From: Escherichia coli
GTDB taxonomy: Bacteria; Pseudomonadota; Gammaproteobacteria; Enterobacterales; Enterobacteriaceae
NCBI RefSeq assembly: GCF_003334385.1
Contig: NZ_QOWN01000079.1
Length of the DNA: 5,995 bases
Strand: one strand, 5' to 3'
Part shown: positions 1,100 through 4,537 of the stretch, one piece after another
Numbering within the stretch: position 1 is the first letter of the stretch
Layout: each line of letters begins with the position of its first letter
Notes under the pieces: generated by a model
Told to the model about the DNA's origin: nothing
Database searches by the model: none
The model's input: the letters and a program-made list of their open reading frames with translations, nothing else
Made by a program: the position numbers and the translations under genes

Positions 1100-1126
1100 C
1101 CCTTTCATTTTCCTGAAAGGGTTTTG
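1100..1126 (+). terminator. rho-independent terminator of the colicin transcript, overlapping the 3' end of the convergent immunity gene
   Basis: Stem CCCTTTCA (1100-1107), loop TTTTCC (1108-1113), stem TGAAAGGG (1114-1121), then TTTT (1122-1125) on the plus strand, 13 nt after the colicin stop codon at 1085-1087. Confidence 0.5.
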
Positions 1127-1452
1127 CAGAATATAAATATTAAGTAAATGGCAACTACAGGAACTGATATAACGAAACAGAATAATTCAAATATTACAGT
1201 TAAGCTTCCGCCAACTGGATTAGTAAAGAAGTCTTTTTGCCAGACTTCTTTCCCTGTAAACCTTATTACCATTTTCTGTATTATCTTCATTGAAAAAGGA
1301 AAAGTAATGGAGCTGATAATGCATCCGATGAACGCATAAAACATTCTTGAATTTTCCTGGTTATCTTTCCATCCCAGATAAAAAACTGTAAGAATAATGA
1401 AACCTGGTATCAGGCTTTTCAGAAAATACTTTACAGATATATCCGCTTTCAT
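1105..1452 (-). CDS. pore-forming-colicin immunity protein (colicin Ia/Ib immunity type), 115 aa, integral membrane
   Basis: Intact 115-aa ORF, convergent with and immediately downstream of the colicin remnant, which is the canonical arrangement for pore-forming colicins. It is strongly hydrophobic with several predicted TM segments (GFIILTVFYLGW, FIGCIISSITFPF, SLTVIFELFCFVISVPVVAIYLIFIF). An AAGGAG ribosome-binding site sits 7 nt upstream of the ATG on the minus strand (plus 1460-1465). Confidence 0.65.
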   Translation of the reverse strand: MKADISVKYFLKSLIPGFIILTVFYLGWKDNQENSRMFYAFIGCIISSITFPFSMKIIQKMVIRFTGKEVWQKDFFTNPVGGSLTVIFELFCFVISVPVVAIYLIFIFCKTLSGK

Positions 1453-1562: not shown

Positions 1563-1910
1563 GTGACTTTTGAGCAGAAAAAAGCCCGGGCCATTGCCCT
1601 GATGGACAGTAAAAAGATGTGGCGGAGCAATTATGCCCCTCCTCTTCTGCGTATTCTCTGGCGGCTGGGTATCCGGCTTCCGCCATTACCCTTTATGCCG
1701 TTCTGGCAGGTCACGGTGCTGACGGGGGGCTTATGGGGCATTTCCTGGGGATGTGCAATGTGGTTTATCTACTGGGGGCCGTCAGGAATGGTGGCAGGTG
1801 AGGCCATTATTATAAGTATCACGGGTGGTTTTTTGTTCGGACTGCTCATGGCCTCTTTCCACTGGTGGCGCAGGAAAGTTAACCGGCTGCCACCATGGGA
1901 TGATGTGTGA
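1563..1910 (+). CDS. small hypothetical inner-membrane protein (Trp/Gly-rich, two predicted TM helices); GTG start
   Basis: 115-aa ORF starting at GTG 1563, preceded by GGAGG (1549-1553) with a 7-nt spacer. Hydrophobic core VTVLTGGLWGISWGCAMWFIYWG and AIIISITGGFLFGLLMASF. A possible promoter is TTGTCA at 1468-1473 with TAACAT at 1492-1497. Confidence 0.5.
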   Translation: MTFEQKKARAIALMDSKKMWRSNYAPPLLRILWRLGIRLPPLPFMPFWQVTVLTGGLWGISWGCAMWFIYWGPSGMVAGEAIIISITGGFLFGLLMASFHWWRRKVNRLPPWDDV

Positions 1911-1927
1911 ATCGTGCAGGCATGTTT

Positions 1928-2518
1928 TTACGGGGTGACGCTTTCATTAACCTGTACACGAACTTTTATTCCGGCATCATGACAGGCCTGCAGCCACTGC
2001 GCCACTTCCAGCGGATCGCCCTCCCGGCGTACCACCCTGCCTTCTCTGTTCCATAACTGCAGACAGGTACTGCCGTCGAGACGTACCACAAAATCCCCAC
2101 GGCAGGCCTGATATGTCATGCCGTTCAGCTCCACCGCCAGATCAGTGGCAGAAGTGCCGTCTGCGGGCAGACCTGATGCCGGGACCAGCGGCAGTACGAC
2201 GACTTCTGCCGCACGCTGTTCTGCCCGGAGGCGGTCCTGTTCTGCCAGCAGAAGAGGCTGTGCCACGGCCCGGCCGGCGTCCGTCAGCTCCACTGTCAGC
2301 TGCAGGTTCGGAGCGCGCAGGGTACGCAGCCAGCCGGCATCCTCCAGACGACGGCAGGAGGCGCGCAGGTTTGGCCCGTAGACCGGGGCTTCCCCGCTTC
2401 GCTCCAGCACCCGTTCTATGTCCCGCGTCAGTACGGGCCCCGGCCGTTTTTCATCAAGGGCAGCCAGCACAATCAGCACTCTCCGCTGCAGTGGCGACGG
2501 TCGGCGGCTCTGGGTCAT
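1928..2518 (-). CDS. hypothetical protein, 196 aa, G+C-rich; Arg-rich N-terminus with a possible winged-helix DNA-binding region; second gene of a coupled pair
   Basis: ORF MTQSRRPSPLQRRVLIVLAALDEKRPGPVLTRDIERVLERSG...NLRASCRRLEDAGWLRTLR...; its ATG (2518-2516) overlaps the TAA of the upstream gene as TAATG, indicating translational coupling. Codon usage is consistently G+C-rich. Function unknown. Confidence 0.55.
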   Translation of the reverse strand: MTQSRRPSPLQRRVLIVLAALDEKRPGPVLTRDIERVLERSGEAPVYGPNLRASCRRLEDAGWLRTLRAPNLQLTVELTDAGRAVAQPLLLAEQDRLRAEQRAAEVVVLPLVPASGLPADGTSATDLAVELNGMTYQACRGDFVVRLDGSTCLQLWNREGRVVRREGDPLEVAQWLQACHDAGIKVRVQVNESVTP

Positions 2519-2775
2519 TACCTGTCATCCTCCGGCCAGATGAGCTTTCTGAGGCGCTGAAAGTCGGCGTCAATGAGCTCCGGTCTCTTTATGGCATTCA
2601 TTGAGGCATAGCCATTTATGGCCAGTTCATGCCAGAAGATCAGCACTGCTCCGGCTTTGGCTGACTCGCAGAGATAAATTGCGCCCTGGCTGTCCAGATT
2701 GCATTCCCGGATGCGTCGTTCCGCAAACCGGGTCAGTTGTTCATAGCTGAGTGAAAACATCCTTTCTTCATCCAT
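2518..2775 (-). CDS. hypothetical small protein (~85 aa), first gene of the coupled minus-strand pair
   Basis: The track ORF 2518-2892 has an AT-rich N-terminal extension that overlaps the palindromic repeats. The preferred start is the ATG at 2775-2773, preceded by GGAG with an 8-nt spacer, giving MDEERMFSLSYEQLTRFAERRIRECNLDSQGAIYLCESAKAGAVLIFWHELAINGYASMNAIKRPELIDADFQRLRKLIWPEDDR. Confidence 0.45.
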   Translation of the reverse strand: MDEERMFSLSYEQLTRFAERRIRECNLDSQGAIYLCESAKAGAVLIFWHELAINGYASMNAIKRPELIDADFQRLRKLIWPEDDR

Positions 2776-2851
2776 CCTGCACACTCCATCTGATAATGTC
2801 CTGTTAAGAAATAAATCATATTTTGAATCATTTATTTCTGCGCCTGTAAAC

Positions 2852-2904
2852 ATCATATCAGATATGATTATGTGATTAATGATAAATATCATATCAGATA
2901 TGAT
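2852..2904. promoter_or_regulatory. two identical perfect 17-bp palindromes (candidate tandem operators) upstream of the minus-strand operon
   Basis: ATCATATC-A-GATATGAT occurs at 2852-2868 and again at 2888-2904, 36 bp centre to centre. Each copy has 8-bp perfect inverted arms. They lie 80-130 bp upstream of the start at 2775; the AT-rich tract 2921-2933 carries TATAAT-like hexamers on both strands. Confidence 0.5.
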
Positions 2905-3222
2905 TTCATGTGTTTTTCTTGATTATAATATTAGTTGCTGGTTTTCCGCCGCGCAGATCCGGTTTCTGGTGGTCACGGATCTTCCTCTCCCCCACACAAC
3001 GCCACCTCCTATCAGCACAACATGTGGTATCTCATTCGGTTGCTTATGACACTATATGTTGTGTCATCTCCCTGACCTGTGATGCGCCGCGCAGGGGCGG
3101 AAAACAGCGATATGATTATTTTCTCAGCGTGGTACACTTCCGGAAAGTTGTGATATTCCGGAAAGTCGGATCTGACGGAAACGGCTCTCCGGTAATTTAA
3201 CGGCGTGGTTATATGGATGCTT

Positions 3223-3302
3223 GTTATCATGGTGATGATGATAACGGCATGATGTTATCAGACGGCGTGACGGTAAGGGCAGTGATGATGGATGACGTTA
3301 TC
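3223..3302. repeat. cluster of alternating GTTATC / GATAAC hexamers and GTGATGATG repeats upstream of the recombinase operon
   Basis: GTTATC at 3223-3228, GATAAC at 3240-3245, GTTATC at 3254-3259 and 3297-3302; GTGATGATG at 3232-3240 and 3282-3290. All lie 40-120 bp upstream of the ATG at 3343. Confidence 0.3.
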
Positions 3303-3342
3303 GCATGACCGTCCCTGCCCGGAAAAGAAAAAGGAGTCACCC

Positions 3343-3756
3343 ATGTTTTTTATTGAGAATGAAGGTCAGGCTGTCGCCGGAACGGATTACTGGCAGTCTG
3401 TACAGGCGCAGGCCGGATATGTCTACCTCAGCTGGAATGCCGGCGCAGCCAGGCTGCTTGTCCCGGATGCGGCAAAACATTTACTCAGGGAGATGCGGGG
3501 GGCTGAGTACGTCATCATCAGTAAGGGAACGCTGAATGGCCGCGATGCGCTGGAACTGGTATTTGAAGACGGCAGCGATGCGCCGTTTGTGATCCACATG
3601 CTGAGTGAGCAGTGCGATCGCCTGCTCCCCGAAAACAACCAGGGAGGGGGTTTTGTTGTCACCGTCTGGACGCGTGGCGGTAACCAGCGCCGTTATCCGG
3701 GAAAGTACCGTGTTGTGGAAAACCTGCCCGACGTTTCCCCGTGGAGTGAACACTGA
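3343..3756 (+). CDS. hypothetical protein (137 aa), translationally coupled to the downstream tyrosine recombinase
   Basis: ATG 3343 is preceded by AAGGAG (3331-3336) with a 6-nt spacer. Its stop TGA (3754-3756) is followed one nucleotide later by the recombinase ATG (TGAtATG). Sequence MFFIENEGQAVAGTDYWQSVQ...; no motif I recognise. Confidence 0.55.
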   Translation: MFFIENEGQAVAGTDYWQSVQAQAGYVYLSWNAGAARLLVPDAAKHLLREMRGAEYVIISKGTLNGRDALELVFEDGSDAPFVIHMLSEQCDRLLPENNQGGGFVVTVWTRGGNQRRYPGKYRVVENLPDVSPWSEH

Positions 3757-3757
3757 T

Positions 3758-4537
3758 ATGCAGCACCTGCCGGCACCGATCCACCATGCCCGGGATGCTG
3801 CTCAGCTTCCTGTTGCCATCGATTATCCGGCAGCGCTGGCACTCCGCCAGATGTCGATGGTTCATGATGAACTGCCAAAATACCTGCTGGCCCCTGAAGT
3901 GAGCGCCCTGCTCCATTACGTGCCGGATCTGCGCCGCAAAATGCTGCTGGCCACACTGTGGAACACCGGTGCGCGCATTAATGAAGCACTGGCGCTGACG
4001 CGGGGGGATTTTTCGCTCACGCCTCCGTATCCGTTTGTGCAGCTGGCCACTCTGAAGCAGCGGACAGAAAAAGCCGCCAGGACGGCAGGAAGGATGCCCG
4101 CCGGTCAGCAGACTCACCGTCTGGTTCCGCTCTCCGACGCCTGGTACGTCAGCCAGCTGCAGACGATGGTGGCCACACTGAAAATCCCCATGGAACGGCG
4201 TAATAAACGAACAGGCAGGACAGAGAAAGCGCGGATCTGGGAAGTGACGGACAGAACGGTCAGGACCTGGATTGGGGAGGCGGTTGCCGCCGCTGCCGCT
4301 GATGGTGTGACGTTCTCTGTCCCGGTCACGCCACATACGTTCCGCCATTCCTATGCGATGCATATGCTGTATGCCGGTATACCGCTGAAGGTCCTGCAGA
4401 GTCTGATGGGGCATAAGTCCATCAGCTCAACGGAGGTCTACACGAAGGTGTTTGCGCTGGATGTGGCTGCACGGCACCGGGTGCAGTTTTCGATGCCTGA
4501 GTCCGATGCGGTGTCTATGCTCAAAAGAATTCCATAA
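3758..4537 (+). CDS. tyrosine site-specific recombinase (plasmid multimer-resolution type, ResD/XerD-like), 259 aa
   Basis: Contains the tyrosine-recombinase signature residues: box I Arg (LWNTGARINEALAL), HTFRHSYA (H-x-x-R), and LMGHKSISSTEVYTKV with the catalytic Tyr. The track ORF 3605-4537 is trimmed to the ATG at 3758, which abuts the upstream stop. From memory it resembles the F-plasmid ResD protein. Confidence 0.85.
   Translation: MQHLPAPIHHARDAAQLPVAIDYPAALALRQMSMVHDELPKYLLAPEVSALLHYVPDLRRKMLLATLWNTGARINEALALTRGDFSLTPPYPFVQLATLKQRTEKAARTAGRMPAGQQTHRLVPLSDAWYVSQLQTMVATLKIPMERRNKRTGRTEKARIWEVTDRTVRTWIGEAVAAAAADGVTFSVPVTPHTFRHSYAMHMLYAGIPLKVLQSLMGHKSISSTEVYTKVFALDVAARHRVQFSMPESDAVSMLKRIP

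Follow-up and report, generated by a model that had tools for sequence, protein, structure and literature searches.

The ydfA–ydeA gene pair of enterobacterial plasmids: a widespread operon predicted to be autorepressed through three phased operators

The window analysed here, a 5,995-nucleotide stretch of an Escherichia coli contig (NZ_QOWN01000079.1 of assembly GCF_003334385.1), carries two overlapping minus-strand genes, ydfA and ydeA, behind a control region that contains repeated palindromes. The pair is a real, very widespread and conserved plasmid operon. On balance we favour the view that it is a self-contained, negatively autoregulated operon of IncI1/K/B-O and IncF-type plasmids in which YdeA serves as the operator-binding repressor. 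In kind, we regard it as an ordinary autoregulated transcription-factor operon with a small partner.

A first reading of the sequence, the original prediction, had treated both genes as anonymous. They are in fact the ydfA and ydeA genes of R64 and ColIb-type plasmids; named records call the small gene ydfA and the large gene ydeA, and always describe the products as 'hypothetical protein'. A megablast search with the 1.3-kb region matched 4375 PLSDB plasmids, and blastn with ydfA and the control part returned at least 5000 PLSDB matches. The source genera of these records were Escherichia, Klebsiella, Salmonella, Shigella and other Enterobacterales, and the replicons were mostly conjugative IncI1/K/B-O or IncF plasmids. 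Only 216 YdeA relatives, many of them fragments, were recovered when 1.84 billion cluster representatives were scanned exhaustively with HMMER; YdfA relatives amounted to 549 clusters at 90% identity. All named source records and genome loci were from Enterobacterales except for three loci titled as Clostridia, Terrisporobacter or Lachnospiraceae contigs. The original prediction had staked its two-gene module on the genes being conserved together in related replicons, and they are: we examined six loci from plasmids and 18 from genomes, each genome locus in a separate genome record, and found a gene for a YdfA homologue directly 5′ of ydeA in all six of the plasmid set and in 15 of the genome set.

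The gene models of 85 and 196 amino acids, overlapping as TAATG, stand as first described (Table 1). The TAA of ydfA and the ATG of ydeA have one base in common, and GGAGG is found 10 nt 5′ of the ydeA start codon. A stop/start overlap of 1 or 4 nt was conserved in 15 of the 20 loci in which both genes were complete; in the remaining five the gene boundaries were close or the start was ambiguous, with nominal gaps of −31 to +6. The junction and its conservation support in silico the proposal, already made in the original prediction, that ydfA and ydeA form a translationally coupled two-gene operon. A 124-amino-acid open reading frame that begins at 2892, within a palindrome, does not represent the conserved ydfA start, as the alignment of relatives leads to the 85-amino-acid form. 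Both genes are transcribed in pS88 (PMC3438092), and reverse transcription PCR has shown ydfA, ydeA, ibfA and a proQ-like gene to lie on one transcript in pUA1135 (PMC12111858). Purifying selection acts on both genes, with median ratios of nonsynonymous to synonymous substitution rates of 0.43 for ydfA, 0.26 for the YdeA N-domain and 0.37 for the YdeA C-domain. The G+C content is 61–68% in ydeA and ∼40% in the control region. The description of a G+C-rich island accordingly holds as regards rich coding DNA next to a poorer control region, but the rich stretch is wider than the pair and extends from ybaA (∼1500) to resD (∼4500).

For the control region we aligned the 215 bp 5′ of ydfA from 19 loci (the window and 18 other plasmid or genome loci). 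The 17-mer ATCATATCAGATATGAT occurs in exactly two copies, 36 bp apart from start to start, confirming the two identical perfect palindromes noticed at the outset (O1 and O2). The count of two operators was too low, as there are three positions: a degenerate third dyad (O3) and the conserved element TATTATAAT had been missed. The three dyads, centred relative to the ydfA ATG as given in Table 1, have the consensus ATCAT-N7-ATGAT, and their positions are kept across the 19 loci although YdfA identity to the window copy drops to ∼37–39%. In other plasmids O1 or O2 is degenerate and O3 good, and at least two dyads can be recognized in most loci. Half-sites of the TATGAT type recur every 35–37 bp; the TATTATAAT element could be either a fourth half-site in this phase or an upstream −10-like element. 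Read towards ydfA, the control region consists of the inverted repeat at 2955–2982, GCGCGGCGGAAAAC, TATGATAAT, the three dyads and the leader ACATTATCAGAYGGAGCGTGCAGG, and a motif related to this leader also precedes yedA. No Rfam RNA family was detected in the window, and a hairpin in the ydfA leader was no more stable than shuffled sequence (z = −1.3).

The operator pattern was highly enriched. ATCAT-N7-ATGAT matched three times in the window, compared with 0.01 matches expected from 200 shuffles. Across 196 kb of related loci the core pattern gave 36 matches, of which 29 fell at the three ydfA operator positions, five at a fourth conserved site before yedA-resD and two in one conserved upstream gene. 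The whole 93.4-kb ColIb-P9 plasmid contained it three times (0.1 expected), in every case within the ydfA–yedA region. The predicted sigma-70 promoter of ydfA is embedded in this array, its −10 hexamer TATGAT being the promoter-proximal half of O2, and in coordinates of the predicted start O1 lies near −51, O2 near −15 and O3 near +22. For the homologous operon of pUA1135, BProm placed the start 69 nt 5′ of the ATG (PMC12111858); in the alignment this start coincides with that of the window, just 3′ of O2, and the equivalent sequence of an R64-type locus agrees as well. Conserved dyads overlapping a predicted promoter fit the earlier suggestion that the palindromes are operators.

To characterize the proteins, AlphaFold2 models were built with family alignments. 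The model of YdeA (predicted local distance difference test score, pLDDT, 88.7) comprises helices at residues 9–24, 31–40 and 48–60, a wing at 64–78, a long helix at 80–104 and a low-confidence linker, followed at 127–190 by five to six strands and one helix. The N-terminus is predicted with high confidence to be a winged helix-turn-helix (wHTH) DNA-binding domain, in agreement with the helix-turn-helix-like N-terminus first noticed in the larger protein; the modelled succession of H1-H2-H3 and a β-hairpin wing is that of MarR/PadR/HxlR-type regulators. YdfA was modelled as a generic three-helix bundle (pLDDT 85), in which neither a recognizable DNA-binding fold nor a catalytic motif was apparent.

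As noted from the outset, neither protein can be assigned to a described family, and this held in Pfam, NCBIfam, PADLOC, PDB profile and Foldseek searches, nothing reaching threshold in the first three for YdeA or YdfA. Pfam gave no match to YdeA below E = 0.05 (best AbiEi_4, 0.057; PaaX, 0.076, long form) and NCBIfam none above cut-off, and neither collection placed it among MarR, PadR or HxlR by sequence profile. The best PDB profile match of YdeA was MarR, with E = 0.007 over 45 residues of the wing only, and its MarR/DtxR wing matches were weak. For both proteins, Pfam, NCBIfam, PADLOC and PHROGs yielded nothing beyond sub-threshold matches or families of unknown function, the best being that of YdeA residues 21–90 to phrog_19460, a PHROG of unknown function (E = 8.5e-7). 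Matches of YdeA to JetA reflect only the wHTH, and matches to tetratricopeptide and ankyrin repeats in the PDB profile searches were discarded as artefacts. PDB profile searches with YdfA and with the isolated YdeA C-domain returned no match. The β domain likewise had no Pfam or PDB sequence match, its fold searches were all dominated by the wHTH, and Foldseek against AFDB50 returned only the YdeA family itself. A known sensor domain was not detected in YdeA, and Pfam showed neither WYL nor WCX in YdeA, in its C-domain alignment or in a long form.

The two proteins differ greatly in how freely they vary, with a mean pairwise identity of 48% for YdfA versus 78% for YdeA. Residues 5–80 of YdeA are almost invariant (RRPSPLQRRVLIVLAAL...APVYGPNLRASCRR...GWLRTLRAPNLQLAVELT), and its linker (∼90–125) is hypervariable. 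YdfA identity falls to 27% between loci. Fixed YdfA positions are few; the N-terminal FSLSYEQ is invariant, and the L and T that come next are invariant or nearly so. At three loci (L003, L013 and L028) a 95%-identical YdeA is encoded alongside a 60%-identical YdfA. YdeA also varies in length. The proteins of IncI and IncF plasmids end right after a conserved (V/I)NES motif, and homologues encoded on chromosomes or other plasmids often reach 300–430 amino acids (L014–L019; P0269, P0274, P0277 and P0278). The C-terminal extension of these long forms (∼110–230 amino acids) had no Pfam, NCBIfam or PADLOC match and was not found as a separate gene in short-form loci.

A dimeric wHTH protein, a dyad operator and a −10 element inside the operator would constitute the standard arrangement of an autorepressor. 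YdeA would dimerise and its wHTH would bind the ATCAT-N7-ATGAT palindromes. YdeA is the natural candidate for the binder because it has the only DNA-binding fold of the pair and because its residues 5–80 are, like the operator core, nearly invariant, whereas YdfA varies too freely. Since the three sites, 36–37 bp apart, flank the −35 element, cover the −10 element and adjoin the start on its 3′ side, their occupancy should block RNA polymerase, and the ydfA promoter, P(ydfA), would be repressed by YdeA. Translational coupling would fix the YdfA:YdeA ratio, and YdfA would act with or on YdeA, most likely as a co-repressor or anti-repressor. P(ydfA) would also drive co-oriented cargo 3′ of ydeA, such as ibfA in R64-type plasmids, because no terminator is predicted after ydeA. 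In the window no co-oriented gene is found there, ybaA being convergent. That YdeA rather than another protein occupies the sites, that the regulation is negative and that YdfA takes any part in it, we infer from this arrangement.

Several observations weigh against an autorepressed operon of this kind. The promoter agrees with the consensus at only 8 of 12 positions, which is below the scan threshold, and a consensus promoter and terminator scan of 1850–3400 found nothing. With a spacing of 36–37 bp (∼3.5 turns), adjacent sites face opposite sides of the helix, an unusual arrangement for simple cooperative dimers, and the location of O1 near −51 is also compatible with activation. YdeA homologues at 30–55% identity occur without YdfA. 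Finally, YdfA identity and YdeA C-domain identity were uncorrelated (r = 0.09), so that a physical YdfA–YdeA complex receives no support from co-evolution; the N- and C-domain identities of YdeA itself co-vary (r = 0.74).

Table 1. Features of the ydfA–ydeA operon and its control region (window coordinates)
Feature	Position	Strand	Description
ydeA	1928-2518	-	196 amino acids; predicted wHTH ∼9-78, long helix 80-104, variable linker, beta-rich C-terminal domain 127-190
Coupling junction	2516-2533	-	GGAGG 2529-2533 within the ydfA 3′ end, then TAATG stop/start overlap (ydeA ATG 2516-2518)
ydfA	2518-2775	-	85 amino acids; ATG 2773-2775, TAA 2518-2520; predicted three-helix bundle
5′ leader	2782-2803	-	strongly conserved ...ACATTATCAGATGGAGTGTGCAGG before the ATG, including Shine-Dalgarno GGAG
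Operator O3 (putative)	2815-2831		centre -48; degenerate in the window (ATCATATTTTGAATCAT, + strand), good palindrome in other plasmids; 3′ of the predicted transcription start
Sigma-70 promoter (predicted)	2845-2879	-	TTAATC 2879-2874, 16 bp, TATGAT 2857-2852, start near 2845
Operator O2 (putative)	2852-2868		perfect palindrome, centre -85; best-conserved site across loci
Operator O1 (putative)	2888-2904		perfect palindrome, centre -121; just 5′ of the predicted -35
Conserved TATTATAAT	2922-2930	-	TATGATAAT in most relatives
Inverted repeat AGATCCG-N14-CGGATCT	2955-2982		preceded by GTTTTCCGCCGCGC; arms kept, loop lineage-variable

The genes that surround the operon bear on a different possibility, namely that YdeA and YdfA form a sensor-regulator cassette resembling BrxR/CapW, which would repress adjacent anti-phage or competition cargo on one or both sides until a signal acting through the β domain or YdfA relieves the repression. 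We regard this as the chief rival to the autoregulation model, or an extension of it, and consider it unlikely, though worth serious attention. In R64-type plasmids the IbfA protein encoded 3′ of ydeA matches HEC-04 (E = 9e-42), a ProQ/FinO-family gene follows, and ibfA is carried on the ydfA–ydeA transcript (PMC12111858). Divergently from the control region, two loci (L031 and L032) carry a gene for a TIR-domain PDC-S35 protein (E = 2e-60) together with a DUF4238 gene, a third (L033) carries a DUF4238 gene and the ibfA gene of ColIb, and DpdC-like and nuclease genes lie 3′ of long-form ydeA in three genomes. The efficiency of plating was 0.01 for the full cloned operon as against 0.05 for ibfA alone (PMC12111858, Table 2). 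The window and many relatives, however, have no defence gene on either side; in the window the pair has rfsF/resD to one side, and to the other convergent ybaA and a decayed colicin gene. Of the further neighbours tested, most had no PADLOC match, and neither WYL nor any other known sensor domain was detected in YdeA. Moreover, a separate promoter is predicted for ibfA, which by itself confers abortive infection of a P22-like phage (PMC12111858). The suggestion of a defence-type module stands for the neighbours, which include the co-transcribed ibfA of R64-type plasmids, and is not borne out for the pair itself; ibfA alone confers the phenotype.

Homology between plasmids with different cargo (the window, L031, L032, L033 and L004) ends exactly at the distal arm of the repeat at 2955–2982, and for this reason we place the edge of the module there. 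Beyond the repeat follow, depending on the plasmid, rfsF with yedA-resD, TIR PDC-S35 with DUF4238, DUF4238 with the ColIb ibfA and others, or insertion sequence (IS) elements (IS66); the repeat itself looks like a cargo-insertion or recombination hot spot. At the other end, 3′ of ydeA, the window and other Col-type plasmids have convergent ybaA and colicin genes, and, apart from ibfA with its ProQ/FinO-family neighbour and the DpdC-like and thermonuclease-like genes, the remaining genes found in this position are of unknown function. The module thus lies between two cargo hot spots, which frequently, though not in every case, carry anti-phage or bacteriocin genes. When PADLOC was run on nine further upstream neighbours from the genome loci, only one matched, a DEDDh exonuclease, and we accordingly claim no permanent defence-island location. 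Regulation of neighbouring cargo by YdeA and YdfA is plausible. A bolder version, in which a portable two-protein cassette sets interchangeable anti-phage genes on both sides through its phased operators, IbfA/HEC-04 3′ of ydeA and TIR PDC-S35, DUF4238 or ColIb ibf divergently, with the fast-evolving YdfA as an infection-responsive anti-repressor and the YdeA β domain as a new sensor fold, appears doubtful to us.

Some of the cargo genes deserve description in their own right. The DpdC-like proteins (Dpd 7-deazaguanine DNA-modification defence; PADLOC E = 2e-43) have 215–226 amino acids and are encoded 3′ of ydeA in L016, L017 and L021; no other dpd genes were seen nearby, and in L016 a secreted thermonuclease-like gene comes next. 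The gene that the literature annotates as ibfA of ColIb, for abortive infection of T5/BF23, encodes a predicted membrane protein of 114 amino acids (L033, 2902–3246, minus strand; ColIb-P9, 13401–13745). It lies beside a DUF4238 gene in the cargo segment between the ydfA control region and rfsF, which is absent from the window, and it has no entry in the PLSDB gene table. Identification of ybaA as the ibfA/abi gene of ColIb was refuted, ibfA being this different 114-amino-acid membrane reading frame in the cargo segment that the window lacks. The ybaA gene (1563–1910, plus strand) encodes a predicted DUF6404 membrane protein of 115 amino acids that matches phrog_31022 (phage, unknown function; E = 1e-37). 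It converges with ydeA; the two stop codons are 17 bp apart, no terminator is predicted, and read-through from P(ydfA) would hence be antisense to ybaA. The colicin Ia/Ib gene at 667–1084 has decayed in the source plasmid of the window: only fragments are left, corresponding to residues ∼385–415 and 547–626 of 626 in different frames. The colicin immunity gene (1105–1452, minus strand) is intact. Overall the window contains, in order, the decayed colicin gene, the immunity gene, ybaA, ydeA-ydfA on the minus strand, the control region, an rfsF-like site, yedA-resD and a ParA-like pair, which is the ColIb/ColIa-type arrangement.

An addiction function, as entertained in the original prediction, fared worse. 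Here YdeA would be a DNA-binding antitoxin encoded in second position, as in higBA, mqsRA and hicAB, with YdfA as the small toxin, or the roles would be reversed. A small overlapping bicistron under palindrome control in a plasmid-maintenance neighbourhood has the expected form, and the wHTH of YdeA matches AbiEi_4 weakly (E = 0.057). A bicistron encoding a protein with a DNA-binding domain is nonetheless equally compatible with any autoregulated operon, and neither protein matched a toxin or antitoxin family in Pfam, NCBIfam or PADLOC. YdfA is predicted to be an 85-residue three-helix bundle without catalytic motif. The type IV AbiE system, with its AbiEii nucleotidyltransferase toxin, does not match either: the partner of YdeA is this helical bundle, and no nucleotidyltransferase gene was found nearby. 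The operon is also naturally disrupted, by Tn21-derived insertions within ydfA (PMC9412624) and by a replacement that begins inside ydeA (PMC8004404), and some PLSDB copies match ydfA only in part or are without the control region. Length-altered YdeA clusters are widespread: the 207-amino-acid clusters P0085 and P0105 represent 91 and 62 contigs, and many other clusters have 169 amino acids. In the one example of each that was checked, the linker was deleted in frame (P0120, 169 amino acids) or the C-terminus was frameshifted (P0105). The whole operon was moreover deleted from pUA1135 without reported difficulty (PMC12111858). We therefore consider an addiction module, which none of the tests supported, improbable.

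It is more improbable still that YdeA has a different DNA or RNA target and leaves the palindromes to another binder, for instance YdfA or a host factor. The TATGAT half-sites are also −10-like hexamers, and part of their conservation could reflect promoter function. A −10 element, however, needs no full dyad symmetry at three phased positions, and YdfA, with no recognizable DNA-binding fold in its model, is far too variable for an invariant operator core.

Least convincing of the alternatives that we weighed is an accessory role in multimer resolution, in which YdeA and the repeated sites would form an architectural complex beside the recombination site of the rfsF/ResD system. The module does abut an rfsF-like site and yedA-resD in IncI/K and Serratia plasmids, the one further exact ATCAT-N7-ATGAT match of ColIb-P9 precedes yedA-resD by 118 bp, and inverted copies of parts of the control region are found at 3096–3119 and 3255–3269. 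The pair is, however, conserved just as well where IS66 or IS21 elements or 2–4 kb of cargo separate it from resD, and the Serratia plasmid does not keep the site before yedA. That the palindromes are part of rfsF itself was rejected: a recombinase-type repeat is located at 3016–3063, and the pair and its palindromes also occur without an adjacent resD. A partition site was rejected as well, the operon having no motor gene: the repeated sites are not accompanied by the cognate TubZ, ParM or ParA gene that TubR/ParR-type systems have in the same operon.

The DNA between the control region and resD has several further features. The inverted repeat CACAACATGTGG...CACTATATGTTGTG at 3016–3063 is conserved, with another spacer, upstream of an integrase gene in a distant Serratia plasmid, and it probably forms the core of rfsF, the site of the ResD tyrosine recombinase (3758–4537). 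The element ATCATGGTGATGATGAT at 3226–3242, ∼100 bp before the yedA ATG, fits ATCAT-N7-ATGAT and is the only exact match on ColIb-P9 outside the ydfA control region. It is statistically striking, but because it lies in simple ATGAT-repeat sequence (ATGATGAT) and Serratia does not conserve it, we take a connection with resD expression as a lead only. Inverted elements of the ydfA control region recur before yedA (GGCGGAAAAC...GATATGATTAT, with the leader motif TTATCAGACGGCGTG and then ATGGATGA), which suggests that this region was long ago duplicated in inverted orientation around the rfsF site. Lastly, TTCCGGAAAGT, which includes the palindrome TTCCGGAA, is present in two exact copies (3138–3148 and 3156–3166), 18 bp apart, between the rfsF-like site and yedA; these may be an operator for another regulator, for example ResD or YedA.

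The pair is present on at least 5000 sequenced IncI1, IncK, IncB/O and IncF plasmids of E. coli, Klebsiella, Salmonella and Shigella, among them the main carriers of extended-spectrum and AmpC β-lactamases. Its mechanism can now be put to the test in concrete terms, with a defined operator sequence, a candidate binder and a promoter. If YdeA and YdfA set the expression of abortive-infection genes, this would help to explain plasmid-dependent phage resistance and phage-type conversion, as well as the swapping of defence cargo at the rfsF-proximal hot spot. We found neither the fold assignment nor the three-operator architecture nor the location between two cargo hot spots described in the literature that we searched. 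The gene names are a trap, since plasmid ydeA and ydfA are unrelated to the E. coli K-12 chromosomal genes of the same names and can mislead functional interpretation. Chromosomal K-12 ydeA encodes an L-arabinose exporter of the major facilitator superfamily (PMC5493296), and a 2026 genome-wide association study of IncK2 plasmids reads an association with plasmid 'ydeA' as one with the arabinose exporter (PMC12987596). If the 'ydeA' of that study is the 196-amino-acid winged-helix gene, the interpretation would not hold.

Among known systems, the small wHTH repressors of the HxlR/PadR/MarR type (QsrR, HypR, PadR and MarR) and the viral F-93 proteins come closest, as they share their fold with the YdeA model, and a MarR/PadR/HxlR-type autorepressor is most alike in the proposed mode of action. 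YdeA is nevertheless not a member of these families at the sequence level, given a best PDB profile E-value of 0.007, and differs by an additional β domain of 70 residues, to which some relatives add ∼110–230 amino acids. Its operon differs by three phased operators and an obligatory small upstream partner gene. The BrxR and CapW regulators (wHTH-WYL-WCX) resemble YdeA in an N-terminal wHTH, a small β-rich domain and, in the long forms, a C-terminal extension; they likewise adjoin phage-defence genes and have inverted repeats in their promoters. They are, however, single genes without a YdfA-like partner, Pfam detected neither WYL nor WCX in YdeA, and many ydfA–ydeA copies, including that of the window, have no attached defence gene. 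The type IV AbiE antitoxin and repressor AbiEi is similar to YdeA in its N-terminal wHTH, as reflected in the weak AbiEi_4 match, and reportedly binds two inverted repeats in its own promoter cooperatively. YdfA, in contrast, is no nucleotidyltransferase of the AbiEii kind, the genes stand in reverse order with the small one first, and the C-terminal domain of YdeA is unrelated by sequence. The higBA, mqsRA and hicAB operons also combine a small first gene with a larger, overlapping second gene for a DNA-binding protein under palindrome control, and ydfA–ydeA differs from them by its lack of toxin or antitoxin homology and by its tolerance of natural disruption.

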